From a virus: a stretch of DNA of 64,000 bases. Shown here in pieces: positions 1-49,392 of this stretch (positions are counted from its first letter, which is position 1; every line of letters starts with the position of its first letter). Under the pieces are notes generated by a model. That model ran no database searches and was not told the DNA's origin. It saw only the letters and a program-made list of their open reading frames with translations. The stretch covers positions 38,432-102,431 of the IMG/VR virus record IMGVR_UViG_3300045988_147738; one strand, given 5' to 3'. The translations under genes and the position numbers were made by a program.

Positions 1-3000
1 GAATACGATTAGAGCAAAAGAGAAATTATTTCTGATTATACTAAACGCGGATAGACACATTATGATAATGATGTAGAATAGATTACTTCTAAAGATCTAG
101 ACACTATTATTAATGCTAAATTACGTAATCCAAACTTAGAAATTGATTCTGATACATTAAAAGATTTAGGCTTAGATTAGAGTGTTATTGATTTAATTGA
201 TAATAATACTGAATTACAAGATGCTATTAAAGAATTGACTATATAGGCACAACGAATTGCTGACACAGAAACTAATGATATGTATAATAAAATGGTTTCT
301 GACGGGATTTTAGAAGATTTAAAAGAGGCAGGAGTTAGTGATGAATATGCCTCTGATATTGCTTATAAAATGGCTGAAGATGCAGCCCGTAATTCTAATG
401 CTATAGATTATACTGACTAGTCTGCTACCGCTTTTAATGTTTTAAATAATTCAAATGAAAATATTCAAGAGTTTTTAAAAGAAAGAGGATATACTTATAA
501 AGACAATAATTTTTGGGGTAATCTATCTAAATTATAGAATGATAAAACCATTGAAGTATATACAGATGAAGATTAGAAAGAGACTAAAAATATTTCTGTT
601 TCAGAATTACGAGCTTGGTTGGAAAATAAATTAGCAGCTGAAGATACTGTGGCTAATATTGATGATTATGTAGGAATAGAAGCCGACAGTAAAACAACTT
701 GGGAAAATGCTTCTAAAGCAAAAGAAACTTGGAATAAAAATCAATCAATTGTAAATGAATTTGAACAAATAAATCAACAGGGGACTCCAAACGAAGATTC
801 TTTTGATAATACAGAAGATTATCAAGCGGCCTATAATAATTATCAAGATTAGTTAAAAGAAAAAGCTCAAGCTATGTCAGATATGTTAAAATAGAATTCT
901 GAAGAATATGCTTCTATGTTTGACATGACTAAAGAAGGTTTCGAAGAATGGATTAGTGATAGTGACAATATTATTGAACATTATGATTTAATTAAGAAAG
1001 CAGTTGAAGGAGACGCTGAAGCTGTAAATGAATTACGAAAATTAACTGGTCTTAATATTGGTACTATTAAAGATATTTAGGATGCTTGGAATGATAACAG
1101 TAAAGAACTAGATAAATATATTGAAAAATTAGAAAAAAATCAAGATTTAACAGAAGCTGAATACGAATCTTTTGGAGATTTTTTAAATGCTAATTCTGAT
1201 AGTTTTGCTTCTTTAGCAGCAGTGAGTGAAGATACATTTGATAAAATGTTATCTCATAACAAAGATTTTATTAAAAAATCTGGTCCATTGATTCCTAAAA
1301 TGATGAAAGGCGATACTAAAGCTGTTCAACAATTTAGAGTAGAAGCATAGCGTCAAATTGTTTTAGATGTTAATAATACTTAGGCTAGAAAAGCAATGGC
1401 CCAATTAGAGGAATCTGCAGGTGCTGCTGCTGGGACCGTTGAATCAGATGTTCAAAATGCTTTTGATTATATTTCTAATTATATAGAAAACAATCCGATT
1501 GAAGTCGGAGCAGAGATTAATGATGCTGGATTTATTGATGCTTGTAATAAAATAATTGCAGCTAGTGGATGGACATCTGAACAAGCACAAAAAGAATTTG
1601 CTAAAATGGGATTTAATTTAGAATTAAATCCTGTTGAACCTCAAGTAACTAAAAAACATTTTGATACATTAGTAGCCACTAATGAAACTGATACCGTTGA
1701 TGGCACTCATCATGTTCCAGGCGGAGTTTTTATTAAATCTTTAGACGGAGAAGATGTAATCGAATATCCTGCAGCAGTTAAGGCTGTAACTGGTGGTGGC
1801 TTAGAAATGGGGGGTGAAGTCACTGGAGGCACAAAACCTTCTGGAGTCACTGGAGGAAATGGTGGCGGTGGTAGTAGTGGAGGGGGCGGTGGAAGCTCAT
1901 ATACTCCCCCTCCTAAAAAAGAATATAAAGATGAAATCGAGCGTTATCATGTAATTAAACAAAAAATTGAAGATTTAGAAGAAGTAATGGAGCATTTAGC
2001 AAAAGCTAAAGAGCGGGCATTTGGCACTTCTAAATTAGAATTAATGGATCAAGAAATTGAGAAATATGATGAAATGATTGATTTATAGAATCAATATCTT
2101 GATGAAATTAATAAATATTGGGATGAAGATAGAGCTTTAATTGCATCTTATGGGGCTGAATTTGATGAAACTGGTGCTATTACTAATTATGATGAAATTA
2201 TGAAGCGCCAGATTGATAAATACAATTCATCTATTGGTAAAAATGAAGATGCTGATAATGCAGCTGAAGAAGCTTATGACGATTTTATTGAAGCTTTAGA
2301 ATAGTATGAAGAAACTAATAATTTGCGTCAAGATGAATTGGAAAAATTATATGATCTACAAACTGAATTAGCTGATGTAATTTTTGAAAAGACTTAGTAT
2401 AAAATTGAAATTAAGATTGCTGTTAAAGATGATGAATTGGAATATCTTGATTATTTATTAAGTAAAATTGAAGATGATGCTTATTCTGCGGCTGAGGCTA
2501 TAGCTTTAATTGGTGATAAAACTTAGAATACTCTTGATAAAATTACTACTTATCAAAAAGGATTAATGAAATTATTAAATAATCATGGTATTGATTCAAT
2601 AGAAGAATTAGAGGGAATGTCTGAAGCTGATTTAAAAGCTAAAGGATTTACTACTAAAGAAATTGAGCAATTAAGAGACTGGCGTTCAGAATTATTATCT
2701 AGTAATCAAGAATTACTTGAAATGCGTAATACAATTCAAGAAAAAGTATTAGATAGTTTCAATCAATTCAGTGAAGATATCGAACATCAAATTGAATTAT
2801 TTGATCATTATCAAAATATTCTAGAAGGTGTTAAAGATATTACATCATTATTAGGAATGTAGTTGGGAGAATAGTCTAAAATAGTAATTCGCAATTTAAA
2901 TCGTTCATTAATGAATAATAGTATTAATAACTTAGCTGGGACTAAAAAAGAATTAGAAGCATTGAAATAGATGCGCGCAGACGCTTAGGCTGAGCGTGAT

Positions 3001-4749
3001 AAAGTGGCAGCTAACGGAGATGAACAAGCTATTAAGAAATGGGATAAAACCTTACAAGAAATTGATGATAAAATTAATGGTGCAGAAGAAAGCTTTTTAG
3101 ATAGTTGGCAAGAAGCATTATAGAGAGCAAAAGATATCTTTGATGAAGAAATGAATAATATTATTCAAGAATTTGAAAAAGGAATTGCTCCTATTCAAGG
3201 CACCATTGATGCATTACAAGAAGCCATTGACCAAGCTAATGAAATTGATGCACAATATTTAAGTGATACTGATAAAACTTATGAATTAAATAAATTAAGA
3301 CGTTAGATTGAAGGTTCTATAGAAGATACTGATATTATCGCCCATAAACAAGCATTGAATAAATTACAAGATGAGTTAAATAAAAAATTAAAAGATGGTT
3401 CTTAGATTAGTGAATATGATTTGAAAATTTTACAATCTAAATATGAATTAGAATTAGCACGTCAAAAATTAGAAGATACTCAAAATAATAGTGAAGTTGT
3501 ACGCTTGACTCGTGATAATAATGGTAATTGGGGATATGTATATAGTGCCGATGAAGATAAAATTGCTGAAGCCGAATAGGCCTATGAAGATAAATTAAAT
3601 GCTTACCAAAAAGCAAATGAAGAATATTTAAAAACTCTTGAAAACAATATTCTCCAAGTGTAGGCGGACTATAAAGAAAAACTTAAAGAAATAGAGTTAG
3701 GATTGGCTGACGGAGAAATAACAAAAGAAGAAGCTGAAGCTAGAATTGCTAATTTGAACGATTGGTATTTAAATAAGATGCAATATCTTGAAGGCGAATA
3801 TAAAAAGTTATTTGAAAATAGTCAAGACGCAACAGAAAAATTCACTTCATATTATTAGACTAATACTGATAATATTAAAAATACATTTGAGAAAACTACT
3901 TTAGCTATTAAAGGTGGATATGAATCATTAGACGCAATGTTCAAACGATTCTGGGAAAGTCATGACAATGTATTAGATAATTCAATGAAACTATTAGATG
4001 ATCTCAGTAAAAAATAGGATGAAATAAATCAAACTGCTGGTATTGAAGGTAGTTTTGCTAATGAGGCCTCTGGTTGGTCTATTAAGATTACTGGTGATTC
4101 TGATAAGGCATTAGCTGATATGGATGGAATAGTTAAGAACGCTACCGATTCCTTCAAAGACGTTATTGAAGCAGCAGGTAAATGGGAAAAAATTTATAGT
4201 GAAAAAATTAATAGTGCCATTGATCGGAATGAAGCTCTCGTGATTAGTCTTAATAAAATGGTTGCATTATTATCTGGAATAGATAGCATCGATTATAGTA
4301 AGTATGGAAAGAAAATAGATTCTCGCGCTACCGCGACGGATAATAATATAATTAGCACTCAACATAATTCTAAAAGCTTTAACAGTACTGATTATATTGC
4401 AGAACAATCTTTCCCCTTAACTTATGATATATTTGATAGATTAGATATGAGTAAATAGATAGATGAATGGATGTAGAGTAATGAATTAACAATTGATACT
4501 GCATTAATTGATAGTTTAGATGTATCAAGTATTTTACAAAGTATAGGATTAAATGTTTAGACTATTGTAAATTATTTATCTAATTTAACTCCTTCTTCTC
4601 TTGGTATTGATAGAATTGCACAAGAATTGATGCAGCAAGTCTCTATTAATGCTGATTTCCCAAATGTGACTGATAGTAATGAAATTATGGAAGCATTTGA
4701 AATGATGGAGAATGAAGCAAGTCAATACGCTAGTCGAAAGACTATTTAA
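1..4749 (+). CDS. Tail tape measure protein, 5'-truncated at the window edge. Frame 1 is open from nt 1 to the TAA at 4747-4749, reading through dozens of in-frame TAG codons. At least 1583 aa.
   Basis: Frame 1 was hand-checked over 1-4749 and contains only TAG triplets, no TAA or TGA. Composition is long, helical and rich in E/K/Q/L, with a Gly-rich linker (GGGLEMGGEVTGGTKPSGVTGGNGGGGSSGGGGG) around 1790-1915. A hairpin terminator follows directly. The four frame-1 ORF-track fragments (619, 1396, 2566, 4120) are all pieces of this one frame. Confidence 0.8.
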
Positions 4750-4756
4750 TTTAAAT

Positions 4757-4789
4757 GGCGAGGTTTAATTACCTCGCCATTTTTTTATT
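4757..4789 (+). terminator. Rho-independent terminator after the tape measure gene
   Basis: Stem GGCGAGGT, loop TTAATT, stem ACCTCGCC, followed by ATTTTTTTATT. Confidence 0.7.
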
Positions 4790-4861
4790 GGTCAAATATA
4801 AATAATAAAATAAGATTTTTTCTTAAAAATTATTAGAATATGAGAAAAAGGAGAGCAAATT

Positions 4862-7669
4862 ATGTCTAATGAATTAAATGAAAAAATATTCCGATCAGTA
4901 GACACAATTGTATCTGCTCGATTATAGAATTTACCATTTGACTAGACAATAATCGGTGTGGTAGAAAGTGTACCTGAAAAATCAGGAGCGCAAAAATACA
5001 TAGTAAATTATAAAGGTGCAAAATTAACAGTATTTGTAAATGATACCGATAAAAAATATGCAATAAATGAAGAAGTATATGTATTAATTCCTGGTGGAGA
5101 TTTTTCAGCTAAAAAACTTATTACAGGTAGAGTTATAAGTGATTATTAGGCTGATGAAAAAAGAAATGAAAATAATTATCTGCCATCATTTAGCCATTGG
5201 GTTTCGTCTGAGCAAGAATATAGTTTAATTGTTGAAAATAGTAATTCAGAATCAACAAAATTAATTTATGAAGTTGCATTAAATGATTCTCCTATTATTG
5301 GTTATACAACCTTATAGTTAGCTTATAATATTGCCGCGGATTTATACAATAATGAAAAAATTGTTGATTAGGGAATATATGGAGTAAGAGTTATTTTAAC
5401 AGCAATTGATTAGAATACTGTTAATACTAATGATAATAATTTAAAACAAGACTTAATATATAATATGACTTGTGATAATATGTTATTAATGAATAAATAT
5501 CGTTCAGGTGGATATACGGCACAAAATTTCAATATTACGATTACTGATAAAATTATTACTAATATAAAAATTATTGCATACCACAATGGAAAATTTTATG
5601 ACAGTGATAATAATAAAATTACTCAAAAAGATGATTTATATGTTAAATTAAAAAATTTCACATTAACTACTGGGTATTTAAAAAAGGATTTAGACAATGA
5701 CAGTAATAGTGATATTGCAATTTATTTTTATTCTCTTAATGGTATATAGTATAAAAGTAATACTAATGAATTAAATGTTACAACAGCATTTCGTCCAGTA
5801 AATAAAGTTACTGGTACTATTATTACCTATCCTATTACTAATATTTAGTTATATAGATATAATGACAGCAATACTATCAATACGTCAGGAGTTGGAATAG
5901 GCTGGGATTTGATTAATAATGTAATTTAGAAAGACACTACATTAAGTTTTAAATTGCAATCTGGCGATTAGATTACAAAAGCGATTTATTGTGTTAAAAT
6001 TAGTTTTAATGTTAATAATATACCAAATGTTTATGCCGTTTCAAATAAATTAACATTTACTAATTAGACTTCTAATGAAAATATTTCATTATTAGCGGGA
6101 ATTACATTAACTCCTAATAATAATAGTAATGTTTTCTACTCTTATGGACAAGACAATTAGTTATTAGCTCGATCTGATAGCGAAAAACTATAGAGAATTG
6201 CTGTATCATTTTCGTCAAAAGATACAGCTGGAAATACTACATTAGTCCCAGGAGTCAATTTAACTTATTATTTACCAGTAAAGAATACTATGATTTTACC
6301 TGTTGATTCTAGACGAGAAATTAATAAAAAAAATCAATAGGAGTATTATACATTTAATAAAAAATTAACAAGCGATGATTTACAATCAAATATTTTTTAC
6401 ATCCCATTTAAAATTGCTAATTTATATAATCCATTATTTAAAAATAATACAATTATTTGTGATGTAGAAATTAATGATTAGACTTATACTCAAAACTTAG
6501 ATTTATTGTTCGGTGTTAGTGGTTCTTCAGGTGCTAATTATGTTTTATAGTTAGAATTATAGGATAGTGCTTCTAATTAGAAGGTAAAATCTATTTTTTA
6601 TAAAGCAACTAATTAGCCCGTGTATAAAATTTAGTATTATTTATATGATTATGCTTGGAATTCAATTCCTAATAATAATTTAAAAAATATTTCATTTACA
6701 TGGTATAATTCAGCATTAAACAATAATTCTAAAATAAAATTAGATAATAAAACGGGAGTTATTACTTTATTACAAGATTTAGTCGCAGAAGATGGAATTG
6801 CTTCTAAATTAATAGTTTAGATGACTGGCACTTATCAAGGAATTGAATTAAAAGGATATATCACAATACCAGTAAGTTTTAATCCTTTATGTGCTTGTAT
6901 TGATGGCTGTTCTATTATTACATATGATATAACAGGTAAAAAACCAATTTATGAAAAAACTCCTTATAGATTATATCAATATTCTGATTCGTTAGATTTA
7001 TAGGTTATAGATGATATAGAGTGGAATTTAATAGATGAAAGTGGATTATTAAAATTTAATTCTATTGATCCTAATGGGCCTAACTCTAAAATTAAAATTA
7101 TTACTCCACCAACAATTTATTCCCCACAAAATAAATCTTCATATATAACGGCTAGTCTAAATAGTTCAATTGTTTGGATATAGCCAATTTTAATGATAAA
7201 TAATACTTATCCAACAGCTATGTGGAATGATATGCGTGGAAATGAAATTAATTTTAATAACAATGAACTTCAATTATTTTCTGCAACTGTTGGACAATTA
7301 GATGCTAAACAAGCAAATGGAGTATTAATGGGGACTTTCATTAATAATAATAATAAAAAACAAGAATATGGGTTATATGCTTTTAGTGATAAAAATATTG
7401 TATTTAAAATTACAGATAATGGTGAGGCTTATATTTAGTAGTCTGAAAAAGCATATTGTTTATCAAATAAAGATGAAAATAGTACTCCATATTCAGTAGG
7501 TAGCAAAACTTAGCCTGTATATTTTGATTAGGGAGTTCCTAAATAGATAGATATTAATTTAACAAATATTAATAATAAAATTTTAACATTAGAAAATACT
7601 ATAAGTAATTTGCAATAGACTATTTAGAGTTTAACAAATAGAATTATAGCATTGGAGAAAAAAAAATGA
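4862..7669 (+). CDS. Large tail structural protein, 935 aa. By position it is a distal-tail or baseplate candidate. Read through many TAGs, ends in TGA.
   Basis: GGAG RBS sits 8 nt before the ATG at 4862. Frame 2 was hand-checked as open, apart from TAGs, through ORF-track fragments 4958, 5465, 6821 and 7193 to the TGA at 7667-7669. The C-terminal end is a coiled coil (LTLENTISNLQQTIQSLTNRIIALEKKK). It lies immediately downstream of the tape measure gene. Confidence 0.6.
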
Positions 7670-7689
7670 GAGTAAAAGGAGAATGATGT

Positions 7690-10600
7690 ATGCCTACAAG
7701 ATTATATCCTCCTCAAATAGCAGGAACATTACCGGCATTTTATAAATCTTATGATAGTGCTACTGGAGTGTTAAAGGAAAGTTCAATCACTATCCCATTT
7801 ACTTCAAGCGCGCTAGTTAGTTCGGCGGATTTTATAGGTTTTTACTTACGTTTGAAAACCTCTTCTACAAATACATATTTATTTCCGCCAATATATTCAA
7901 AAAATTATGATAGTAAAAATTCTACGGTTACATTCACATTAACCGCAGATTAGAGCGCGTTACTAAATGAAGGACAATATTACAAGATCCAAATAGCTTA
8001 TGTGTCTCAATATGTTGAGAGTGAAACTACTGATATTGACGATGATGGAAATATAATTACCAATAGTGTAATGAAAAAATTAACTGGCTATTATTCTACT
8101 ATTGGAATTATAAAATGTGTTCAAGAGCCTAAAGTTTCTATTTAGGGTTATTCAATAGATAGTATTAATTTATTTAATAATGAATTATTTGGTGTTTATG
8201 AGTTATCTTCAAATTTAGATTAGACTGAAAAAGTTTATTCTTATAATTTTTCATTCTATTTAGAAGATGGGGATTTATATTACTCCACTGGAGAGCTATT
8301 GCATAACAATGCTAACGATAATGAATATGGTTTATCTATTGATTCAGTAGTTTTAAGTAGTTTTATAAAAACTAGTGAAATATATAAATTAATTTATACA
8401 GTTACTACAATTAATGGATTGGTAGTGTCTAGTCCGACTTATAGAGTAACTGCGGAAACATTATTAGCTCCTAGTAAAAATTTAAATATTTTACCAAGAG
8501 CGGATTCAGAAACTGGTAGTATTAAAATTAATTTTAAAGGTTTAGAAAAAACTGTTAAAATTGAAAATACAATTAAGGAATTAAAACGCAAGGAAGTATA
8601 TTATAATTATAGTAAATCATTAATTTCTTAGATTAAATAGAAAATCAATCCTGACTATGAATATTAGGGAGAATAGATAACTAATTTAGAATATTTATTA
8701 AAGATAAGTTCAAATGATGGAATGACTCGATTTTTTGTCGCATTACAAAAATTATTAAGAGATAATGCAGGATTAATAAGTGAACTCTGTGGAGTTTCTC
8801 CTGGTTTGTTAATGTCATTAGTTGATATATCAGCAGACTATACTAAAGTGTTAAGTCAATATATTATATCAATTACAAAACCTACAATGGTTGAAAAAGA
8901 TTTTTAGAAGATTAATGATCAATTTTTAAAGAATACTACAAATTATATTCTTACTACAACAGGAGACTATAAAAATTTAAATACAATATTATAGGTTCGC
9001 TTAAACTCTTATGTAGGATATTTATTTAGTAGTATTGCTACTGATGAAACAGATTTTGATAGAATAGTAACAGATTAGAATTTAATTAATTTGGCTCAAA
9101 GTGTTATTACATTAGCTGGATTATCTGAAGAATTGGCTATAGAATATATGAGTATTTTAGGGTATGCGGCTAGTATTGTTGCCACTGAAGAAAAATCTGA
9201 AGATACTTATTTTGGACAATATATTCTTGTGCGCGCGAGTGAAGAAGATGATTATCGCTCTTGGTTAGAATTAAAACGTTTTAAATTAGAAAATATACGA
9301 CCTTCTGCAATTAATTATGTTGATTATACAGTAAAACAAGGCGTTAAATATATATATGGGATTATTCAATATAATTTATTTGGTATTTATTCTGCGAGAA
9401 TTGAGAGTGAGCCAATTTCTGTTGATTTTGAAGATATTTTTCTATATGATGGAGAACGTGTGTTAAAAATAAAGTTTAACCCTAAGGTATCTTCATTTAA
9501 ATCTACCATTTTAGAATAGAAGACAAATACGATTGGAAATAAATATCCATTTATTTTTAGAAATGGAAATGTGAATTATAAAGAATTTCCAATTAGCGGA
9601 TTAATTTCCTATTAGATGGATAATGAATTATTATTTTATAATCGTGAAATTGAAGAATATATTCGTAATTATACTTTTGATTTTAAATCGTTGGAACTAA
9701 AAGAACGTATTGAAAAACAAAAAGAATTTCTTAATAAAATGGATTAGATTTTAATAAATCCTTGTGATTTAGTAGAAGAGAATATCCATAAGGAAAGAGA
9801 TTTTAAAATTGAAGTATTAAATTGGTTAAATAACGGTAAACCTAAATTATTTAAATCAGGGCCTGAAGGCAATTTTATCGTTCGTATTATGAATGTATCA
9901 TTATCTCCTACTGACAGTTTAGGCCGTATGTTACATTCATTTACTGGTCAGTGTGCGGAAATAGCTGAGTTTAATTATAATAATTTATTACGTTATGGAT
10001 TTATTAAAGCAGATATTGTTAGTAAATATGTTTCTTTATGGAAAACTTATTATTTAAATGAATATAAGCCTGGTAAAGATATCGAATTATTATTTGACTC
10101 AGGTATTAATTATTTTGCTGTAGAAGATTTAAAACCTGGTAGTAGTATATTTTTAACTTATGGAGATACAATCGATCGGACTGAAGATGAAATCATAATA
10201 GGTATTACTGGAGCCTATCGGTATGAAAATTCTTCACGAATTATTTCAAAAATTAGAATACCTAATAGTATATATAATCATCCAATAGGAATATTAGAGT
10301 GCCAATATCAAGGTTTAAGATATTCTGATTTTGATGCAATTACTTCAGTTAATTTAAAAACTATAGTAAGTAATCAATATGTTGGTGTTGATCCAATATT
10401 AGAAAATATTAAAGCATTTACTACCGATCCCTCTGATTATGCTAAACAATTATTTATAAAAGCTTTAAAAGCTTTAAATGATCGAATTTTATTAAATGAT
10501 AATTTATCCTATTCAGACTTGCGAGAAAAACTGGTTGAACGAGGATTTGAACCAGGAGATATTGTTTAGCATATTAATTCATCATTTTATAACTATGAGA

Positions 10601-13600
10601 AAGACAAAGTTAAAATATTGAATTTAGAATAGTTAAAAATTAGAGTTAGAGAATTAATTCCTATTTATGCAGTTCCTTATGATTATATTACTCAAGAAGG
10701 ATGGGATAAATTACCAGACTCCGTTGTTTATTGGAATTCTAATGGTATGACTACGAGTTGTTATAAGGATAAAAAAGAAAAAAGATTTAGTCGTAGTGAT
10801 TATGAAAATTTATTTCCTAGTTAGAATTTATTATATTCAGTAACACCTTTTGGTAAACCTTATCCTATTGATGCATTAACTCCATTAGTCAAAGATTATT
10901 TTGATATTAATGATGAATTTTGTGTATTTTAGATGTTTGAATATTCAAAAGAATATCAAACTTGGATGCCGACTTGTCGAAATAATGTTTTTAATATTGC
11001 TACTGGACAATATTATGATTGTTATTGGCAATCTGTTCTTAAAGAGTATGATACATCATATTATATTGGAGAAAAATATCGTTATGAATAGATAGTCGAT
11101 ATCCAACGGGATGAAGAAACACAACGATATTATATTATAATTCAAAATAAAAAATATTATTTATCAGATGAATTTAATTTGTATGTTGAAATAAACGGAG
11201 AGTATAAATTATTAAAAGAAGTATATTTATTCCCAACTGATGAAGATGGATATTATACTATTATTACTAATAATGATTCTCGTATCCAAGATAATAGTTA
11301 TTTAAATGAAGCTGTTCGTTGGAAAAATAAAGATGATTATAACCCTGTTCCTGGGTATAATTTAACTACTAGAACTATTGATGAAAATAATATTGCTAAA
11401 TCAATAGTAAAAGCTTCTGAAATTAAACCATTTTATTTGAGAATAGATAATGCGATTCAATTAAATCAAGGAGATACATAGTATTATACAAATTTAGGTT
11501 CTCCAAAAGTAATAAAAATTGGAACTGGATTAATCGCTGAAGCTACATTTTAGTTAGAAGTATTAGACTATTTTACAGAAAAGAATGATGATAGTACATT
11601 TTTAGCTAAAAATAGATATTTAGAGCGATCTGAAATCTTAAAGAATTTTTATCGAAATTATGAAATTTTAGGAGATGCTGATAATAATTTTTAGAGATTT
11701 TTAACATTGAGTCGTTTTTATAATACGTTATTAAAAGGATTAACTGATAGCAATAATACTCCTTATGAAGATAAAAATACATATTAGTCTAATTTAAATT
11801 CACCATTGAATTATCAGGATAGAACTATTGTAAATGAAATTTTAAATACCGATAAAGACATAGATTTAAAAAATACTGAAATTGCTGATTTATGGACAGC
11901 AGATAATTCTTCACCTGAAAAGAAAAATAAAATCAAGAATGATATTAAAACTACGATAAATAAAATGCAAATAAATAAACGTATGAAAGAAGAATTAGTT
12001 TTACAAGATACTGAAGAAAATGATTTATTTGATTTAATTAAAAATCCTACTAAAGAAGGTATAAATGATAAATTAGCTAAATTAAATGAACTATATGAAT
12101 TATTAAGTTCTAATAAAAATACTACTATTATAAATAACTAGAATATAGCTTCTGATTATGCTTAGAAATTAAAAAATATAGATTTTGCAGTTAATTCTTA
12201 TAATAATGCAATCTATAATTATAAAGCTCATTTATGGTTGTATTGTTTAATTTATCAAAAAATTGCTAAATTAATATATATTGATACAGATAATTATGAT
12301 GAAAAATTATTAACTGAAGATACATTAGATAAAATGGAAGCTAACATTTCAATTTCTAACATTTTAGCTGAAATAAAAAATCATTATAATAAAATAATAG
12401 AAAATAAAAGTGAGAATGCATCTAATGAAGCAGAATTAATAAAATAGAAAAACTATTATTTAAATGCTTATGGAAGTATTTAGAAAAATTATTCTGAAAT
12501 TTTTACTTATAAATCAATTATAAATGAAAAAGAAGGAGATACTGCATTAGATGAATTATTAATAAAACAATTAATGAATTGTTTATTAGATATTTTTTAT
12601 CAATATTCTGTAATGATATAGGCTCGTAAAAATATAAATGAATTATTGAATGGTAAGGCTTAGGATGAAGATACAGATATATTTAAAAAATATATTGGAA
12701 TTAATGAAAATGCTGATTTGGCTCTCAGTAAAGTTAAACAAAAAATTAATACTTTAAAAATTGAAGTCATTAATAATAAAGACAATTTAACATTAGCAGA
12801 TTTATTTTCATAGTATAATTTTTCTAAAGATAATGTTTCTTATTTTAATTCATTAAATTAGAAATTAACTTATTCTAAAAATAATGTTTTAGGATTTTTA
12901 GATAGTCATGCCACTCAAGTAAAAGAATATGTCCAAAAAATTGATTATATGGAGTATATTTATAAAGGTGGTAAAGCTTTAGAATGGTAGCATTATAATT
13001 ATTCTCATTTTATTGGATTTGATAGATTGCCATATCAATTATGGGATTTAAATTCAAAAGATATAGATATAAAAAATTACACTTATGAAATTGAATTTAG
13101 ATCAAGAATTTTAAAATCATTTAGTTATTGGAAAGATAATAATTTTGGAGAAGAAGCTCCTGCTTATATATCTACTATGAGTTCAAATCAATAGAATGAA
13201 ATACGCAGTCAAGTTAATCGTAAAATTATTTTAGATATTAGTGAAGATAATATTAATACTGATGATTTAGATATTTATACAAGTTTTGAATTTGATGGAT
13301 AGATGGACTCAGCTGAATAGAAAGCTATTCAAAAAATTAAAATTCAAAAATTGTTAAGTATTATTGAGACATTTAAAGAGGCAACAGATTATCGTAGTGT
13401 ATTAGATAGTTTAAGTGATTTAATTTCATATATGAATAAAAATACGAATGGGCTTGGAGAAACTTGTTTTAAAACATTATATGGAGTTTCTGGCGATAAA
13501 GATTTAATTACAATACTTACAAATTATAATTAGACTATAAATTCTATTCAAGATGAATTAATAAAAAGTAATGAATTAGATACTTAGTTTATTAAAATTG

Positions 13601-14796
13601 GACAAATTAGTAAAACTGATTTTGATTTTTTCAATCCTTCTAAAGTTTACTATATTTTAAAAGATGATAATTATTAGTTATAGACTGTTTATTCAAATAC
13701 TGCTATTTATTATTTAAAATTAAAAGATTATTTAGTAAAAACTCATTTTGAATATTATAATGCATTAATGGTAGCAAAAGATTATTAGAATATTACAACT
13801 GAATTGATTTATAGTGTTTTAAATTCTTAGAATACTAAAAAAGCAGAATTTGAATTAGGAAAAATGCAATTATATAATTCAAATGGTTTTGTTCCTACTG
13901 TTATCACTAAAGAAAATTATCAAGAGTGTAATAATTTTGTTTATAATAATGTTACGAAATTTGAACGACAAACATTTGATTCAGCTATTAGTTATGATAA
14001 AAAGTCCAAAGATACATTCTTAGCGAAAAATATCACTGGTGGAGATAATGCATTATCAAGTCATAATAATTCAATTAATGCAATTTTAACTAATTATAAT
14101 AATTTAATAAAGAAAAATGGTATCGTAAATAAATTATATTCAACTTATTCAAAATTAGGCAATACCCCTATTGTTTTTACAGATGAGGGAAATAATGCTC
14201 TTAATGCATTAGATTTGTCTAAAATAAATATAAGTATATTAACTGCATCAGATACAACAGCAGTAGGAAAATTTAAACATCTATTATTAATTAAATATTT
14301 ATCTAAATTTATTAATTTGTTCTATTGGTGCAACACTTAGTTGTTTGTTGAATATGATTTAAATATTCGCTTAGCTGAATTATATACTAATTTACCAAAA
14401 CCATGGTCTGAAGCTTCTGAGAACTATCCTTCTATAACTGCTCATGGTATTGTATATTGGTATTTAGAATATGTTTTAAATAAAGCTATAAATGATTATA
14501 ATGATGCATTGGAATAGGCGGAATTATTAAATATTTTTTATACAAACAAATAGACAAACTATAAAGAGAAATAGGCATTATATGAGGCTAAATATAAAGA
14601 ATATTTATAGATTTTTACAGCATTTATGGCTCCTGAATATAAGGAATATTGGAAATATTATAACTCATCTGATATATTTAATAAAAATGAACAAATGAAA
14701 AAGTTAATTGAAGAAGTCAAAAATCTATGGTATGATTTTATTTTAACTCTTGATAAAGGGTTCAAAAAAGAGATAGAGGCGGGTATGTACCAATGA
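7690..14796 (+). CDS. Giant tail or baseplate structural protein, 2368 aa. It is a single frame-1 ORF spanning eleven ORF-track fragments.
   Basis: AAAGGAG RBS, then ATG at 7690. Frame 1 was hand-verified between every fragment (7953-8299, 8631-8722, 8907-9091, 9519-9889, 10569-11179, 11481-11806, 12141-12238, 12447-13351, 13533-13864, 14340-14796). It contains only TAG triplets until the TGA at 14794-14796. No RBS or start follows any internal TAG. Confidence 0.6.
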
Positions 14797-22189: not shown

Positions 22190-23848
22190 ATGGCTTTAAA
22201 TGATAAAGTAATGTTTAAACTTGGTACTCAAGCCAAGATTGACCAAATGATAACTAGTAAAACTGGTTATAGTGTTGGTACATTTTATTTAACTAAAGAC
22301 AGTGACCGTCTATATGTTGGTCAAGCTACTGGTCTAAAGTTATTAAATAAAAGTGTTCAAGTTGTTGAGACTGAAGCTGGTTTAGAATCATTAACTGCTA
22401 GTTGGGGTACTGACGCACTATCCCATAAAGATGATCTTGCTTATATCTCTGGTAAAAATATTTTTGCCTATTTTAATGGTACTGGTTGGACTCAAATTAA
22501 TCCTGACCATAATGATCAATTACAGTCAGTTCTTGTTAATGTAGAAGACGCTACCAAAGGCGCAAAAGTAACAACTGAAGTTACAGTTGGTAGTATTGTT
22601 AAATCTGATGCTTTTACTGTTACTGGCGCTAATGGAGCAAAAGTTGAAAGAGTCGATGGTAATAATATTAAAGTAACTGGTGATACTTATACTATGGCAG
22701 TCAATGCTGATAAAACTAATGATGTTGACATTGACTTAACAAGTTCATTAGGACAAACACCCAGTAAAGTACACTTAGTTGGTGGTAATAATGTTACCGT
22801 AAGCAAAGGAACTACTGACAATACTATTAATATTGCTGCTACAGATACTACTCTATCTGAAGGAGTAAGTTCCATTGATAATACCGGTAAATTAACTATT
22901 GAGTTCTCTGATACGGCTGGAAATAATCCTTCTACTAATGTAACTCTTGGAGCTTATTTAGATGACGGATTCCATGCTATTGGTGGTAATACTAATGAAA
23001 CTAAATCTCAATGGCCTGTATATACCAAGAGTCAAGTTGATGATAAATTTAAGACTCTAAATCCTATGCGCTATAGAGGCACATTAGGCTCTTCTGGTCA
23101 GCATAATATTACTACTGATTTTAATTTAGTTGATGGTTTAACTGATGTTAGCTCTGGTGATATGTTCTTAGTTAGCGGTTCTGCTAAATATGGAACAGAC
23201 AAAACAGCAAAGTCTGGCGATATTTTAATTGCTAGCGGCACAGAAAATAATGATGGTGTATTTGACGCTACTCATCCAATTACCTGGAATTTTATTCCTT
23301 CTGGCGATGAATAGGCACTAGATACTCAGTATATATTTACCGTTGATAAGAGCACCAATACTATGACTATTTATAGTAACTTAAATGGTGCTGAGAATAG
23401 TGTCGGTAAGATTCAATTATTAGCAGGTTCTGATATTACACTATCTACTACTACCAATGATACTCCTACTGGTGGCGGGGATAAAAATCAACTCTTAACT
23501 ACTATTGCTCACGCTGCTCTATTTGATGCAGCTAAGAATATTAGTAAGAGTACTGCTAATTTAACCCAAGCTAATAATACTTTTAATGCTATTAAAAATA
23601 TTACTGTTAATAAAAATGGACATGTTACTGCCATTGAGACTGAGACTGTAAATCCAATTACTTATACACCTGGCCCTGGAGCTGTTGATGCTATTGACAA
23701 AGGGGTTAAATTTAGTTATAGTCTTAACGCTGGCGATGAGGCAGTGACTGATGACAATGCTTACTTCAATTTAACTTCAACAACTCTATCTGTTACTGCC
23801 GCAAGTTCTGCAACAGCATCTGTTGAATTACTATGGGGCGAGTTTTAA
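22190..23848 (+). CDS. Abundant-looking structural protein, 552 aa (fibre, spike or major structural candidate). It has only one TAG codon.
   Basis: Strong GGGAGG RBS. Frame 2 is open from 22190 to the TAA at 23846-23848, with a single TAG at 23312. The N-terminus MALNDKVMFKLGTQAKIDQM...GTFYLTKDSDRLYVGQ carries the shared module. The protein is rich in T/S/G/N/V/D, suggesting beta structure. A terminator follows. Confidence 0.65.
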
Positions 23849-23990: not shown

Positions 23991-26900
23991 ATGAGCAATA
24001 AACGATTCATCCCTGTTCGTGGTACTGAAGCTAAATTAGATTTAATGGGTTTTAATGATGGGTATGTTTATTTTGCAGTTGATACTGGTAAAATTTTCAT
24101 AGACTATACTCAAGCTGATGGTACAATGGTATCACGAAAGCTTTTAGGAAGCGGTAGTGGTGGTGGCTCAGGAAGTAATTCTGGTATTTATTATGCCAAT
24201 TATACTCCGACTGATGCTGAAAAATTAGAAGATGAAATCAATATTCCAATCGGAGCTATTGAAGGTGGAGAGTACCCTGAAGAAGATGATTTAATTATCA
24301 ATTTAGGTAATAATTGTTTTTATCGTGTAATAAAAGTTCAGCGAGCATTTCAAAATGTGCTATGTCGTCGTTTAACTGTTGCTGGTGGAGGCGGAGGAGA
24401 TGACCCTAGTTCATTGGCTTCTGACATTGAATTAACTGTAGACTCATTACCTACTGTTAACTTAATTAATGGACGCTCTCAAGAAATAACATTTGTTGCC
24501 ACATCAGCTAAAAATAAAAAGGGTAATTCTTATGACTCTATTCTAACAATTAATTGGAAGTTAGAATATACTGATGATGGCACCAATTATAATCAATATA
24601 ATTCAGGAACATTCCAAGTGCCTGATGGTGAGAAATATGCTTTTGAATTTGGTAAATTGGCCAAAGATGATGCTTCTTCAAGATTAGTATTAGTGGCTAG
24701 CCAAACCAATCATCCAAGCACAGTTACTCGTTTGATAACATTTAAAACTTCTAAGTTAGAATTACAAGAATCAAGTAGTTTTTCTAATTTAAGTTATTTC
24801 GAACCTAGTAAATTAGTATTACAATGTAATGTTAATGGTGCTATGGATAAAATTGTTGAATATTATTTTGACAATGAAGATGAACCATTTTTAAGTGTGC
24901 CCTTAGCCGCCAATTCGGCTACATTATAGACTGTTAATGTTTCACAATATACCCCTGTAGTTAATGGTTACCATAAAGTTTGGATTCGTTTATTCCAATC
25001 GATTAATGGCAAAAAAGGAATCGAAGTTAATCCTTTAATTTTTGAAGTAGCTGTTTATGATGGCCTAGACCCTCAAGCTCCTCCAATTATTTGGTTAGGA
25101 GACTATAAAGATGAATATTATAATTATGACACTATTCAAATTCCTTTCCGTGTTTTTGACCCATAGGCTGAAAACCCAGTAGTGCATTTTAAACGTAATA
25201 ATATTGAACTTTCTTATTCTCCTCAAACAATTACAGATTCTAAGAAATTTGCTATTTTTGAAATTGCTAATCCTGAATTAAATGTAATTAATCACTACAC
25301 TATTACTTGTGGTGATGGAGCTCGTGAGACTACTCGTAAAATTGAAATTCGTGTTGTAAATGACCCGACAAGAATAGACTTTGGTATTTAGAAGCAAGGC
25401 TTCTTAACTTATTTATTAAACACAGTAGGTAGTGGACGTTCTAATTCTGAAACGTTGGCTAAACGCACTACTTTAGTAAATTCTTCTACAGCTCTAGGGG
25501 CTGAACCTTGTGCGGCGACGTTTACTAATTTTAATTGGTATAATAATGGTTGGACTACGGATGAAGATAATAAAACTTGTTTACGTATTAGTAATGGTGC
25601 TAAATTATCTATTCCTATTGGTCGCACTGTATTTTCAAATCCTAGTGGCTCTCAAGCTACTGAGCAGTCTCATAGTATTGAATTAACTTTCAAAATTCGT
25701 AATGTTTAGGATTATTCAAATTTAATTCGTACTATTACTCGTTATAAAAATGATGAAAAATTATATAAAGCATTTTATGATGAAGAAACTGGTAAATTTA
25801 ATACTACATACACCAACTATGATGCATTTTTAGCTTGGTATTTAAAAACTTATGAAGTTGAATTTGTTGATAAAAAAGGTAATAAGCGTAGAATGGAATA
25901 TGATGACTTAGAGTTCAGTCATATTGCCAAGCAAATTAATTTAAGTAATGTTATAGGTAGTTACTCTTCTGGTAATACTAAAGCCGTTACTGGTTTATGC
26001 TTAGGACCATAGGATGCGTTTTTCTCTAATGGTACTGATACCGTAAACGTATCTTATGTAGAAAATAAAATTATTACTTTATCTGTTGTATGTAAATATA
26101 GTAAAGAAAAAATTCAAAATTTAATTTATATTTATTTAAATGGTGTACTAACTAGTGTTGTTAGAAACACTCAAGAAAATGGATTTGTTGTAGAAAATGA
26201 TAAAATTGAATTTAACAGTGATTATTGTGATATTGATTTATATAAGGTCCGAGTATATCGCACTGATTTAAACGTTAATGATATTGTCATGAATTATGCT
26301 GCAGATTTTGAGAATGTAAATATTTACGATCAAAATAAATTAGCAGAAGAAAATACTGCTATTGATGAATTCCAGTTTAGCTATACTAATATGATAAAGT
26401 ATAATAATGAACACCCTGATGCCCCATTAATGCCTTATATTATTTTTGATACTACTAAATTAGAAGATAGTGAAAATAAACTTCCTTATTCTAAAAAGGT
26501 TAAATTAAACGTTGGAGTTGAATTTGTTAACACTCCACTTGAAATGTATTATAATAAAGGTAAATTGGAAGAATTGGCTAAGGCTGATAAATTATTTGGT
26601 GATGGTGCGACAGCAGCTGAAAAACAAAAAGCTGTTGAAACTTATTATAAATATCATTGTCCTTCATTTATTAGTGATAGCGCATCAATGAGCGTCCAAG
26701 GAACTTCATCTGAATTCTATCCTCGTAGAAATTATAAAGTTAAAACTAAAAATAACGATGCGGTTGATGGCGAAAAGCGCGTTAATATTTTCTTAAACCG
26801 CGGTCCATTCAGAGAATAGTATAATGCTGATGTATTAGGTTCTACTCAGAAACCTTATATTTTAAGTACAACATTGGGGCCTCTAGTTGATTCTGCTACT

Positions 26901-29900
26901 GGTCAATTAAAAATTAAATATTATGAAGATGAAAATGGTGAAAAGGAAGTTACATTTAGTGAGACTAATCCTTATAAACCTAATACTTTTTATATTGAAA
27001 ATACTGCTTACGTAAAACGTGGCAATGAAAAAACTCGTCAAAAATATTGGTATTTTAATAATTATACTTGCGGAACTCATAAATTTACTATGAAGATTGA
27101 CTACATGGAATCTTCTGGAACTTATAATATGGGATTTGCAAATATGGTTAAAAATGCTTATTCTAAACATCCATTAGACGATTATAATAATGCAAAAGCA
27201 TTTTAGGTTTTAGACCCTGACAAAACTGTTGAGACTGAAACAACTGAGTATGTTCCTGGAACTACTTATACTTATTATAATCATAAGGGTAATCCGAAAA
27301 CAGCAAGTAATGAAGTCTTAGAAGATAATATTGTGATTACCAGCAAAGAAGATTTTGATTTAGGTCCATACGCATTATATCAAAAATTAATGGCTGAAAA
27401 TCCAACTGTTTATTCAAAATTAAAAGTAGCTGATTCAAGTAATCCTAAATATAATAAATGGTATATTATGAAACCTGGATACAGCGATTTTAAGGTTGAA
27501 AATACTGATGATTATCGTACTTCTGTACGAGGGTTCCGTGTACTTGCATTCCATAAAAAGAAACCAGTCGATGGTAGCACAGAGCCTATTTATCAATTTA
27601 TTGGTATATACAATATGCTTTTAGATAAAGGTTCTGATGAAGTATATGGATTCGCACTTGACAGCACTACTGGTAAAGATCCAAAAGCTAAATTTATAGG
27701 CGATGGTACTAAGAGTATGCCTAAAGTAGCAGAATGTTGGGAGTTTGAAAACAATAGCCGCACCTTCTGCTCATATCGTGACCCACAAGACCGCAAAGAT
27801 TTGAAATTTGATGTATTTAATGCTGATGGTTCTCGTGTATTAAATGCAGTTCAATCTGCCCCTGTGGTAGCAGACTCATTTGAATATCGTTATCATAATG
27901 ACGAAGATATTCTTGATTATATTATGGCTCCTGATGGAGAATGTAAAAAAGACCCAACATTAACATTCTCTAAGGATGATATTACATTAAATCAAGAAAA
28001 TCGCGCTCAGCATTTATTGAAAGATTATTCTAATTGGGAACGCGCTGTAGCTTGGGTTTGGAGTACTTGTACTGAAAAAGTTGTATCAAATGGTACTTAT
28101 AAAATTTGTGATGTTGGTGAAGAGTTATTTGATAGTAATAAACATTATATTATGACAACTAATCCATTAACTTCTGAATAGATTTATACCTTAGCTGAAG
28201 AATATATAGAAGGCACTACTTATTATAAAAAGAATCCTGACTATAATCCTAATCAAGAAAATAGTCATGAATATATTGTTGCTTATGTTGGAACAGTATT
28301 ATTTAGTGCTATTAAAACTAAATTATATACTGGTGAAATTGATAAAAATAATAATATTACTTATGTTCCTTGTTATAGTACTGATACATTTAACCCCGAT
28401 AAACGTTATTATACTTTGGAATCTTATAGCGATGAAGAGTTAGATACAAAGGCTGATAGATTAGTTGTTTTATGTAAAGATGAAACATTTGATGCAAGTA
28501 AAACATATTATAATTATGATGGAAATGCTAAATGCGGTAAAGCAGTGACTAAAGCTACTGTAACTGCTGAAACTTATGAGCCAAATAAATATTATATTGG
28601 AACCACTATTATTTATGGTGACCGCTCTTATAAATATGATACACAAGAGTATCGTGGTGATAAATTTACTTATGAATTAAGTGACCACTTCGATAAAGAA
28701 TATATGGCTACATATTTTGTTATGACAGAAATTTTTGAATGTTATGACTCTCGTGGTAAAAACTGCATGATGGCTTCTTGGGGTCCTCAAAAGAAAGGCG
28801 GAGACTATATTTGGTATCCAATTTTCTATGATATTGATACTCAATTAGGTATTAATAATACTGGTATCCCTTCATTTGAATATAATGTTGATGCTACTGA
28901 AGATGGTAACTATTCTACTTCTGATAGTGTTTTATGGAATAACTTCTATAAATATTTTAAAACTGGTTTAATTATCCCTAAATATAGACATTTACGTGGT
29001 ATTACTACTGATGTATTTGATTCTAATTTAAAACAACCACCTTTAAAAACTGTTGATCGTATTGAGTCATATTATTTAACTGATTATAATATAACAAATA
29101 ACTTAGCTGACTTGGGCACACGTCCATTAGTAGCAGTTAATTTAGATGAATATTATAAATATATCACTATTACGAATGATGCTTCTTACTTAGATGGTAC
29201 TACTGGACATATTAGTAGTGATACAACTGGTGTATATACTGTTGATACTAATGGTACTTATTTCTATGCTTTACAAGGAAATAGAAGTCTATCTCGTCAA
29301 CAGTTCCTATCTAACCGTTTAGAGTATATTGACTCTTGGTTAAATGAAGGTAACTATCAACGTGGTGGTGCAAACCGCATTCGTGGTCGTGTTGCTGCGA
29401 ACAATAAAAATAAAACTTCAGATAAATGGATTGAAACTGCTAGCGAGCCTTATTTCAAAGATGAAAGCACTTTAACTAAAAATCATTTATTTGATGCTGA
29501 ATATTGGATGACATTAACTCCAGCCCACTCTTCTTATGTTACTCTTGGTGATGACAATGAAGCCTATCCTTCTCGTAAATATGATGGTGTTCATGCACTA
29601 AGATTTAATATTGATTCTATTGAAAATGGTGTCCGTAAGAGTGAAAATTATCCTGAACAATTACTATATGTTTATGGTATTAATCAAATGAAAGACCTTG
29701 GCGATATGAGTAATCTATATTGGCAAGAGTTTGAAATTTCTGGTGATGCTACTAAATTAACTAGTTTGAAATTAGGATATGATGGTTTGGATGAAAATGG
29801 AGAGCGTTGGCATAATGACAATGTTAACCAATTCAGTATTCCTGCCAGCTCTTCTGATAGTAAAGGCATGCCCTTATTAAAAGAAGTAAATATGAGTAAT

Positions 29901-32165
29901 ATTCAATTTAATGCTGCTTCTCCTATATTAGATTTAACCAGTTGTGAAAAATTAGAGAATTTCCGTGCTACTGGTTCTAATTTAATTAATGTCTAGTTTG
30001 CTAAAGGCGTCGCATTAAATACTGTATATTTACCTACTAGTATTACAAATCTTGAATTAGTTGAAGCTAATTTATTAAAGAATGTAATCACTGAAGATGA
30101 ATATGAGAATCCTATCCGTGATGATGAAGGTAATTTACATGCTAATCCTGGTTTATATCTCCAAGGTTTCTTTGATAAAACCTCAACTGGAGATAAGGGC
30201 GATACAGTAATTGCTTCTCTAAATATTGCTGGTGGTGGCTTAGGCTATGATAGTTATAAACTATTAAAACAATATTATGCTATCCGCAGTCAATAGACTA
30301 ATACTTCTCAAATTTCTATGACCGATGTTAATTGGTGTCCATATGTTTAGATGACTGTTGATGATGAACGTAATCCATCTACTATTTATTATGTGGATAA
30401 TGGACATTATGGACTAGAACCTTATACTTATACTAATTTTGATGCATGGACTATTAAAGTTGAAAATGGTGAAATTTATCGTAAGGATGAAACAATTCCA
30501 GAAGATAAAATAAATCAAATTACTGATTTAGCTATGTTTAAAGAATTTATTAGTGATAAAAAATGGGTTAAAAATTCTAGTAAAAATATTCCTGATATCT
30601 CTGGTATTATTTATATTAATAATACAGAAGTTATTAAAGAATCTGAATTACGTAATATTATTCAAGTCGCTTATCCTGATTTAACAATTTTCTGTGCAAA
30701 CGTTGAATAGGGATATACTGCTAGATTTGTAATTATGAATGAAGATGAAGGTAATGACGGTCGTTATCAGTTAATTGGCTCTATGACTTTAAAAGATGGC
30801 GAAACTTGGTTTGCTGATCCTATTGATACATTTGGTGATGTTAGTGAGAAAAAGCCGAATCATGATTTCTATGGTTGGGCATTGACAAATTCTGCTAGCG
30901 CTGATATTCTTATTAATATTGATAAAAGTATCAATAAATGGAATGAACAAACTCTTGATAATAATATTCATACTTATACATTCTATGCTATTTGTCCTAT
31001 TCACAAATGGAGTGTTAAATATTATTATAAAGATAGTACATTAATTGAAGAGAAAAAAATCCCTCATGGTAATTATGCTGTAATGTCTACTATTATTCCT
31101 TGGAAAGATGATAGTGATTTACCATTGGAATAGACCTATAAATTCTTAGGATATAATCGTTCTGCTACTTCTAATACAGTTATGAAATTAGAAGAATATA
31201 TGATTACTGAAGATACTACTTTCTATGCCGTATTTGATTCTAATCCTATAAGTGTTTATGATGATATCCATACTGAATATTTTGAGCCTACTACTCAAGA
31301 ATATAATTCACTATCTTCTCCATCTTCTTGGATATTTAGCGATCCAACAGAAGGTTTTAATAGTAAATGGTCTGTAATGAGTGATGGTATTGTTTTAGGT
31401 TTATGCAAAAAAGTTAAAGGTAAATTGACAGTTCCTGCATTTTATGAATACAATGGTAAAAAATTAAAAGTTATTGGTATTGATGCTTCATTTAGTTCTC
31501 CTGGTGATGTTACTAATAGTAACCAAGCAACGCCAAATGCTAAAACGATTGGTGGTAATACTATTGTAGCAACTTGTTATGGAGAAGATTTAACTCATGT
31601 ATTCTTCGAGAAGTATACTGATAATGATGGTAATTAGAAATGTAATATTAGAAAATTTAATATCGCTACATTCTCTCATTCTTATGGTTTAAAATGGGTA
31701 GAATTCCCTGAAGGCTTACGAGTAATTGATGCTTACTGTTTTGCTTTAAATGGCGATCGTGATAAAAAATTAGTTGGTTCTTTAGAAAATGCTAATATTA
31801 GTGGAACAATTACTGAAATAGGTTAGAGCGGATTTAAAAATAGTTTTAGTCCTAAAGTTGAGACATTAATTATTGGTCCTTCTGTGAGCTATATTGATGT
31901 TCAAGGTATTGATTTCTGGTCTAATTCAGATTTGAATAAAGGATTAACTGGTGGTATTAATAAAATTATTATTGGTACTCCAGAAGAAAAATCTAAATTA
32001 TATACTTAGAAAAAGCTCGATTATGGTTCAACAGGTATTAGAGGATATAGAACCAATGCTGATCGTAAGATTAATAGTATTGATTGGTATACTACATTAT
32101 CTCGTGATGATACTATTTCAGTCTTTGGTAGCGGTATTGATACCAGTACGGTAAATTATTTATAA
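23991..32165 (+). CDS. Giant fibre or receptor-binding-type protein, 2724 aa. It has the shared N-terminal module and C-terminal BspA-type leucine-rich repeats.
   Basis: AAAGGAG RBS, then ATG at 23991. Frame 0 was hand-verified across all eleven ORF-track fragments (25182, 25455, 26289, 26874, 27333, 28416, 30351, 30735, 31182 and others) with only TAG triplets until the TAA at 32163-32165. N-terminus: MSNKRFIPVRGTEAKLDLMGFNDGYVYFAVDTGKIFIDY. The C-terminal region near 31640-32160 has IG..AF...IxIPxSV-type repeats. Confidence 0.6.
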
Positions 32166-35151: not shown

Positions 35152-35229
35152 GGGTAAATATAAATAATATTTTGATGTAAATTTTTATAATAAATGTATA
35201 TAATTTACAAAGAGGAAAGGAGTTATAAA

Positions 35230-39193: not shown

Positions 39194-39472
39194 ATGATTA
39201 AAAAAGTTCAAATTCCTCAAGAAATTATTTTAGAGGTTCAACGATTATGGTTTGAATATCAATCTAATTTAAATATTTTAGGTTATTTAATGACTTAGAA
39301 TGATATTAATAAAGAATTATTAGCAGAATATAATTAGGATACTAAAATTCGATTTACTGAATGTGAAATGTATAAACAAAAAATAGCAGATTTATATAAC
39401 CCCTTTGATTTTAATTGTCAATATATTTTTGATTTTGATAATAGTTTAATTCAATATAGTAAAAATGATTAA
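39194..39472 (+). CDS. Small cassette protein, 92 aa, translationally coupled to the maturase gene
   Basis: AAAGGAG RBS. Two in-frame TAGs. The TAA stop at 39470-39472 overlaps the ATG at 39465 of the next gene. Confidence 0.45.
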
Positions 39473-40823: not shown

Positions 40824-40889
40824 CTCTTTCAAAAATATATATGAAAGAGTAAGATACCTTTCAAAATATTATAATTTTATTTATTTTTA

Positions 40890-40935: not shown

Positions 40936-40969
40936 TTTAAACTTTTTTTCAGAGAAGGGAGTTTAGTTA

Positions 40970-49314: not shown

Positions 49315-49320
49315 TTAAAA

Positions 49321-49383: not shown

Positions 49384-49392
49384 ATTTTGGCC

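Follow-up and report, generated by a model that had tools for sequence, protein, structure and literature searches.

A 64,000-nucleotide window of the IMG/VR virus record IMGVR_UViG_3300045988_147738 (record positions 38,432 to 102,431; coordinates below are those of the window) contains, at 7690 to 14796 on the plus strand, a reading frame interrupted only by TAG triplets. We consider it very probable that this is one gene for one polypeptide of 2,368 amino acids (aa) in which TAG is read as glutamine (Gln), with a minor tail (tail-tip) protein as the most likely product. By translation, the frame runs for 7,107 nucleotides (nt) and 2,368 sense codons from ATG 7690 to TGA 14794 to 14796, which reproduces exactly the coordinates, length, and overlap of the TGA with the next ATG given in a preliminary description of the region. 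That description had counted at least ten in-frame TAGs, which holds but is an understatement: there are 45. The internal TAA or TGA that it feared having missed is absent from all 2,368 codons. TAA and TGA together make up about 5.6% of the codons of this frame over the 64-kb window (G+C, 29.7%), and the probability of such an open run by chance is about 1e-59. The gene and its signals are as follows.

7676 to 7681, plus strand: Shine-Dalgarno sequence AAGGAG, 8 nt before ATG 7690, read from the sequence.
7690 to 14796, plus strand: whole coding sequence, 2,368 aa, with 45 TAG codons as Gln and a TGA stop.
14793 to 14796, plus strand: ATGA overlap between the stop of the giant gene and the start of its 923-aa partner gene.

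The frame contains 27 in-frame ATGs. Besides the start, a Shine-Dalgarno-like site precedes only codon 2366, where it serves the next gene, and the internal starts with ribosome-binding sites that might have split the frame into several proteins were thus not found. Under the standard code, translation would halt at codon 88, the first in-frame TAG, and calling yields 11 open reading frames (ORFs) of at least 60 aa in 7690 to 14796, all on the plus strand and 60 to 226 aa long. The region had been described as eleven unrelated small ORFs; the number is exact at this threshold, but unrelated they are not, since 10 of the 11 share the giant frame and only 10901 to 11095 lies in another plus-strand frame (by arithmetic on the start coordinates). 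The C-terminal extension (aa 1294 to 2368) holds 26 of the 45 TAGs, and there is none between codons 686 and 960.

The late-gene block uses genetic code 15, in which TAG encodes Gln. When TAG is taken as sense, the plus strand from 1 to about 46,000 becomes a tight series of large genes, in the order tape measure (at least 1,583 codons), 935, 2,368, 923, 1,070, 303, 552, and 2,724 aa, and then further genes. For every late gene whose upstream sequence was inspected, there is either an AGGAG-type Shine-Dalgarno sequence, as before the genes at 4862, 17922, 21251, 22190, and 23991, or coupling by overlap, and none of the 30 tabulated ORFs of the window terminates at TAG. Of the first eight late plus-strand genes, seven have TAG as 22 to 61% of their Gln codons (48% in the giant gene); the share is only 6% in the 552-aa gene at 22190 to 23848 and 0% in the minus-strand PolIII-alpha and NrdD genes. 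This late-gene pattern is already on record, both from gut phages with recoded stop codons (bioRxiv 10.1101/2021.08.26.457843) and specifically from the phAss-1 group (PMC10607447). The minus strand at 48820 to 63132 carries a replication and nucleotide module, whose 1,323-aa and 749-aa genes are PolIII-alpha and NrdD by eye. Its smaller genes carry some TAGs, including five in a RecJ-like gene, and the recoding is therefore not exactly bounded by the strand switch.

Comparison with relatives points to the same codon assignment. CAA/CAG is the other codon in 14 of the 21 TAG changes between close relatives, and in distant pairs the residues facing TAG resemble those facing CAA/CAG. Alignments of five lineages retain TAG throughout in only three columns. 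Because so few columns keep TAG and its partners mirror those of CAA/CAG, the TAGs are not boundary markers. With 45 of them, per-codon suppression of at least 98.5% is needed for 50% of chains to be completed, and 90% per codon would leave less than 1%. Because 45 successive decodings are needed, TAG must be almost fully reassigned when the giant gene is expressed, and this is consistent with a late-gene gating model (bioRxiv 10.1101/2021.08.26.457843). In such a model, ribosomes starting at ATG 7690 would decode the 45 TAGs as Gln and finish at TGA 14794, the decoder being a phage suppressor tRNA(CUA) presumably encoded outside the window. Before the suppressor is present, translation would stop at the first TAG, and recoding would thereby gate production to late infection.

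The frame is conserved among relatives at every distance examined. Two IMG/VR relatives with 97% and 89% protein identity keep it, with 45 and 48 TAGs. Comparison of the giant gene with that of the 89% relative gives 334 synonymous and 222 nonsynonymous codon differences. Synonymous differences clearly exceed nonsynonymous ones in most 200-codon windows of aa 1 to 1400 and 2201 to 2368, with aa 201 to 400 as the exception (34 versus 30); over aa 1401 to 2200, the two are about equal or nonsynonymous differences are slightly more numerous. Nonsynonymous sites are roughly three times as numerous as synonymous sites, and equal counts at aa 1401 to 2200 therefore still represent constraint. This indicates that the segment is probably constrained more weakly, with a ratio of nonsynonymous to synonymous substitution rates (dN/dS) estimated at about 0.3 to 0.4. 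Judged by these codon counts, the giant gene is under purifying selection along its whole length.

A database search returned 52 homologs of 1,402 to 3,139 aa. All 52 start with KLYPPQI.G.LPAF, and most finish with ...GMY. The window protein is 98% identical to one long form in the database, P0001, and has the N-terminal motif, core, and C-terminal helical domain of the family in one frame. Six of six distant homologs checked at the DNA level are recoded, with 23 to 71 TAGs and a TAA or TGA stop, and in all, eight of eight long forms checked in this way keep the frame, with 23 to 71 TAGs, at identities down to about 32%. Homologs that use the standard code allow a direct comparison. In MT835469 (176 kb, with 0 to 1 TAG in its large ORFs), the N-domain and core lie in one TAG-free 963-aa ORF starting MAFEINIYPPIVDTYMPAF, and homology to this protein and to a 617-aa protein of Enterococcus phages spans TAG codons 610, 642, and 686 of the giant gene.

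The protein belongs to a large family with a common N-terminal part. We used P0154, a complete short form of 554 aa, as the phmmer query against 1.84 billion cluster representatives and obtained 2,917 proteins at E ≤1e-3 and 1,137 at E ≤1e-30. The best 150 matches nearly always begin a few residues from the N-terminus and have total lengths of 470 to 2,163 aa. Family members differ widely in size and arrangement: a split form (185 aa plus 592 aa) on the standard-code contig L008, short forms of 554 aa in the recoded locus L009 and of 617 aa in Enterococcus phages, an intermediate form of 963 aa in MT835469, and a long form represented by the window protein and 52 others. A family hidden Markov model found no counterpart of the C-terminal extension in the loci with short forms; the extension has so far been seen only in those members of the clade that are TAG-recoded, whose tape measures are 2,900 to 4,179 aa long. 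The link between long form and recoding (eight of eight checked) is probably one of shared ancestry and not causal.

To describe the architecture, we ran AlphaFold2 on fragments of P0001; P0001 and the window protein have different residues at 36 of 2,368 positions. Model 1 (P0001 residues 1 to 1130, with 14 differences from the window protein and a 52-sequence alignment) has a mean predicted local distance difference test (pLDDT) score of 80, and model 2 (residues 1170 to 2368) has a pLDDT of 66.7. Together with family conservation, the models divide the protein as follows.

7690 to 8544, plus strand: N-terminal beta-sandwich domains, immunoglobulin (Ig)/FN3-like, aa 1 to 285, opening with the family motif LYPPQIAGTLPAF.
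8587 to 9159, plus strand: variable alpha-helical insertion, aa ~300 to 490 (AlphaFold2 helices at 309 to 489).
9163 to 10059, plus strand: conserved core, aa 492 to 790, the most conserved part of the family by family conservation.
10060 to 11079, plus strand: further beta and mixed domains, aa 791 to 1130, kept within the long-form family (AlphaFold2, family profile).
11080 to 11568, plus strand: linker, aa 1131 to 1293, holding the start of the conserved block IKIGTGLIAEATFQLEVLDYFTE.
11569 to 14793, plus strand: lineage-specific C-terminal extension, aa 1294 to 2368 (AlphaFold2 model, pLDDT 66.7).
14407 to 14793, plus strand: conserved C-terminal region, aa 2240 to 2368, predicted long helices ending ..AGMYQ.

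Model 1 has beta-sandwich domains at 1 to 300, the helical insertion at 309 to 489, a beta-rich core at 492 to 640, helices at 652 to 713, strands at 719 to 875, and mixed domains to 1130. The insertion is sparsely occupied and of low identity in the family profile and is missing from P0012, P0016, P0038, and the short forms. The core contains the invariant segment FNPKVSSFK..TIG.KYPFI.RNG..YKEFP and a LNWLNNGKPKLFKS.EGN motif, and it is homologous to aa 347 to 603 of the 617-aa protein of Enterococcus phage VRE9_3 and to the 592-aa (L008), 554-aa (L009), and 963-aa (MT835469) proteins; in L008, homology extends to aa 869. Residues 601 to 629 (FNPKVSSFK..TIG.KYPFI.RNG) show top conservation, and they are the sole stretch of model 1 with a pLDDT below 50 in the monomer, which would fit a segment that is perhaps ordered only in an oligomer. 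On alignment and model, aa 1 to ~790 form one conserved module, in which Ig/FN3-like sandwiches and core are interrupted by the helical insertion. Residues 1170 to 1293 are low-confidence coil in model 2, and for the extension the model assigns 65% of residues to helix, the longest helix spanning 71 residues, and 4% to strand. Self-BLAST found no internal repeats in the extension, and hydropathy revealed no transmembrane-like segment. Conservation in the family is high at aa 1 to 280, 500 to 1000, 1040 to 1120, 1240 to 1340, and 2240 to 2368 and low elsewhere; the last of these regions is conserved in most long forms of 1,615 to 3,139 aa.

The assignment to the tail tip begins with gene order. 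In the window, the giant gene is the second after the tape measure gene, with the 935-aa gene between them, as the preliminary description had it; PHROG tape measure protein (TMP) matches identify the upstream gene. Four of seven distant contexts also have the tape measure one gene away; of the other three, one contig starts too near and two show no called tape measure in the sequence covered. The TMP models (PF10145 and PHROG TMP) match the upstream gene (280 to 4749) and its homologs, not the giant protein. In every relative examined, the 923-aa gene is the direct downstream partner, and its product has weak DUF5047 and DUF5048 matches and belongs to phrog_32343. In BFVD, Foldseek found long alignments to uncharacterized Siphoviridae proteins (E down to 2e-35); its other matches there include proteins annotated as minor tail proteins in phages of Gordonia, Rhodococcus, and Streptomyces, and one FN3 protein from Bacillus phage Anath. 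Against the PDB, Foldseek returned only generic FN3, macroglobulin, and cytokine-receptor matches with template-modeling (TM) scores below 0.12. Given the gene order, the fold likeness, and a layout of conserved anchor and variable tail, a minor tail (tail-tip) protein is the most likely reading, and the giant tail-tip or baseplate protein proposed at the outset is supported to that extent. The core of the N-module may adopt a tail-tube-like fold, and the N-module would anchor the protein in the distal tail complex beside the 923-aa gene product, with the variable extension projecting from the tail tip or lining it.

The searches for a more specific function were negative. The gp27-like, carbohydrate-binding, or lysin domains suggested for the protein did not appear among Pfam, PHROG, or PDB-sequence matches; this includes the gp27-like and lysin models (Prophage_tail PF06605, Phage_base_V, and similar). 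Sipho_tail PF05709, the model of the siphophage distal tail protein Dit, had no match either, and megablast of the region returned no match among 50,697 phage records.

Several observations weigh against a single tail-tip protein decoded through TAG. The full protein has no Pfam or PHROGs match, and a profile search of PDB sequences and a Pfam search with 14 core sequences gave chance matches only. The fold matches to tail proteins score no better than those to generic FN3 proteins, and the aligned residue ranges were not reported. The model of the extension is of moderate confidence only (pLDDT 66.7). ARAGORN and Rfam detected no tRNA, and hence no suppressor tRNA, in the 64-kb window. Gene order itself varies: the homologous pair of phAss-1 sits between the portal and major capsid genes, and in Enterococcus phage VRE9_3 the homolog follows the tape measure only after about 21 kb and occupies the far end of the structural/lysis module. 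Because these pairs sit elsewhere, closeness to the tape measure is lineage specific.

The missing tRNA can be set against what is known of similar phages. A detectable suppressor tRNA is present in only ~40% of TAG-recoded genomes (bioRxiv 10.1101/2021.08.26.457843), and suppressor tRNA(CUA) is common, not obligatory, for code 15 phages. The flanks of the relatives and the 176-kb MT835469, itself a standard-code genome, also contain no suppressor tRNA, and the window has no Rfam family of any kind.

The position of the phAss-1 homolog ORF21 and its partner near the head genes favors a single giant protein with a place other than the tail tip, as a head-associated, ejected internal, or Ig-like decoration protein. 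Capsid decoration proteins often carry Ig/FN3 domains, and ejected proteins are typically long and helical. With gene order in the window, fold likeness, and layout on the other side, we regard such a role as unlikely. The extension raises a related question within the tail-tip assignment, where a projecting central fiber or a lumen-resident segment is possible by analogy only. That it would be a functional module of its own seems doubtful to us, whether as a second tape-measure-like segment that fills the lumen or is ejected and forms a channel, joined to an anchor at the tail tip, or instead as a giant central fiber that covaries in length with neighboring tail genes. On the fiber version, it is the neighboring gene, not the homolog of the giant, that has the giant size in L009.

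It is also improbable, and we give the idea little weight, that the one frame yields two or more products (an N-module of ~790 aa and a helical extension) by internal initiation, regulated read-through of one particular TAG in part of the chains, or proteolysis after synthesis. Stand-alone short forms of 554 to 617 aa exist in relatives, one standard-code relative has the N-domain and core as two genes, and the junction at aa 1170 to 1293 is the low-confidence coil noted above; C-terminal extensions of tail-tip proteins are, moreover, cleaved in some siphophages. However, no internal in-frame ATG has a ribosome-binding site, and because codons 686 to 960 are free of TAG, none marks the short-form boundary near 775 to 800. 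Conservation is unbroken across 790 to 1130, and the N- and C-terminal motifs occur together in most long forms. The weakest alternative, that the TAGs are true stops in the standard code and the region holds about ten small unrelated proteins or is noncoding, can draw on the 11 ORFs of 60 to 226 aa and the window's lack of a suppressor tRNA, but we consider it negligible and, from the sequence comparisons, effectively refuted, with essentially no support left for it: 10 of the 11 ORFs lie in one frame whose openness by chance has a probability of ~1e-59, the internal fragments have no ATG with a Shine-Dalgarno sequence and most begin at TTG, the frame but not the TAG positions is kept across homologs of 32 to 98% identity, TAG swaps with CAA/CAG, and TAG-free standard-code homologs align across codons 610, 642, and 686.

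With one tail-tip polypeptide as the preferred reading, we compared the locus with known systems. By sequence, the source phage appears to belong to the phAss-1/Enterococcus phage EF1-like group. At the locus, tblastn matched the core to phAss-1 ORF21, an "Ig domain containing protein" (1,879 aa, TAG-recoded), and the window's 923-aa protein to ORF22, a "putative flagellin-like protein" (PMC10607447). phAss-1 resembles the window phage in reading TAG as Gln, in its human-gut source, and in having PolIII-alpha, NrdD, RecJ, and a giant tape measure. It differs in that identity is ~30% and limited to the core, the protein has 1,879 versus 2,368 aa, the pair is flanked by the portal and capsid genes instead of following the tape measure, and phAss-1 has 36 tRNAs, including two tRNA-Sup-CTA genes beside NrdD, whereas the window has none. 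The Enterococcus phage EF1/VRE9 617-aa protein (phrog_30026) and the MT835469 963-aa ORF have the same core directly followed by the 923-aa ortholog, and MT835469 also has the same N-domain with the IYPP...MPAF motif. Unlike the giant protein, both are free of recoding, the helical insertion, and the region from 800 to 2368, at 23 to 30% identity. MT835469.1 (loci L014 to L017), the nearest GenBank relative, is a 176-kb, unannotated, "UNVERIFIED" standard-code record; its TAG-poor ORFs of 2,362 and 2,733 aa gave no BLAST match to those window proteins with which they were compared.

The siphovirus morphology of phAss-1 was inferred from its long tape measure (PMC10607447), and one table assigns Enterococcus phages EF1 and EF5 to the Myoviridae but gives no evidence (PMC6435515). 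The annotation of VRE9_3 contains no sheath gene. Among the FN3-containing proteins, the minor tail proteins of Gordonia phage Teatealatte, Rhodococcus phage Trina, and Streptomyces phage Coruscant and the FN3 protein of Bacillus phage Anath are siphovirus tail-module proteins that align over several domains (~790 to 1,090 columns; Foldseek E values of 2e-11 to 5e-7). However, identity is 7 to 10%, TM scores are 0.08 to 0.26, strings of FN3 domains may explain much of the likeness, and these proteins are 845 to 1,308 aa long without the long helical extension. Recoded gut phages (crAss-like, Lak, Garnet, Jade, and others; bioRxiv 10.1101/2021.08.26.457843, PMC9523058) share the low GC content, TAG as Gln, and the concentration of TAG in structural genes with replication genes free of it, but the window phage is of another lineage, long-tailed, with a giant tape measure and kin among Firmicutes phages.

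The recoding phenomenon, the family, and the clade are all already known in the literature and databases, and the giant gene leaves what is known about recoding unchanged. Its main value is in annotation, as a well-documented case added to the phAss-1/EF1-like lineage: standard-code calling shatters this gene of 7.1 kb together with the entire late block of 46 kb, and code 15 restores a coherent tail module. The family comprises ~2,900 clusters of uncharacterized phage proteins with a common N-module and C-terminal extensions ranging from none to more than 2,400 aa.

Size and arrangement also vary in the neighboring genes of relatives. In L009, the homolog of the giant protein is short (554 aa, 10001 to 11665) and that of the 935-aa neighbor is giant (2,201 aa, 2796 to 9401); it seems that large extensions shift from one tail gene to its neighbor. 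L008 (9428 to 15572; standard code; GC, 34.5%; tape measure of 814 aa) encodes the 185-aa N-domain and 592-aa core in separate genes and has two genes, of 293 aa and 549 aa, in place of the 923-aa partner; the split genes may be unfused or ancestral versions. A small ORF of 54 to 57 aa lies just before the giant's homolog in L005 (9847 to 10011), L007 (4637 to 4804), and L009 (9825 to 9998), overlapping its start by 11 nt in L005 and L007 and ending 2 nt short of it in L009. The window has no such ORF, and its gap at 7670 to 7689 measures only 20 nt.

The tape measure gene of the window (1 to 4749, plus strand) runs off the 5′ end and has at least 1,583 codons. Its homologs (PF10145), at L005 1 to 6633, L006 1 to 7542, L009 1 to 2669, and L012 1 to 2951, are 2,900 to 4,179 aa long and therefore suggest unusually long tails, of several hundred nanometers by a rough estimate. 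Further along the late block, 23991 to 32165 (plus strand) is a second giant recoded gene, of 2,724 aa with 16 TAGs, whose homolog in L005 has an LRR_5 domain; its product may be a host-interaction protein. A 452-aa radical-SAM/4Fe-4S protein is encoded within the block at 39465 to 40823 (plus strand). The 575-aa protein at 43715 to 45442 (plus strand) has an ALK/LTK-type glycine-rich domain (E = 8e-45) and Listeria-Bacteroides repeats. The 567-aa (35194 to 36897, plus strand) and 934-aa (40889 to 43693, plus strand) proteins, the former without a Pfam match, have a common C-terminus of ~110 aa that reads AVFNDYAEYRE...GRVLAYP...NGTVS...WIKI and that we take to resemble the self-cleaving chaperone end of tail fibers.

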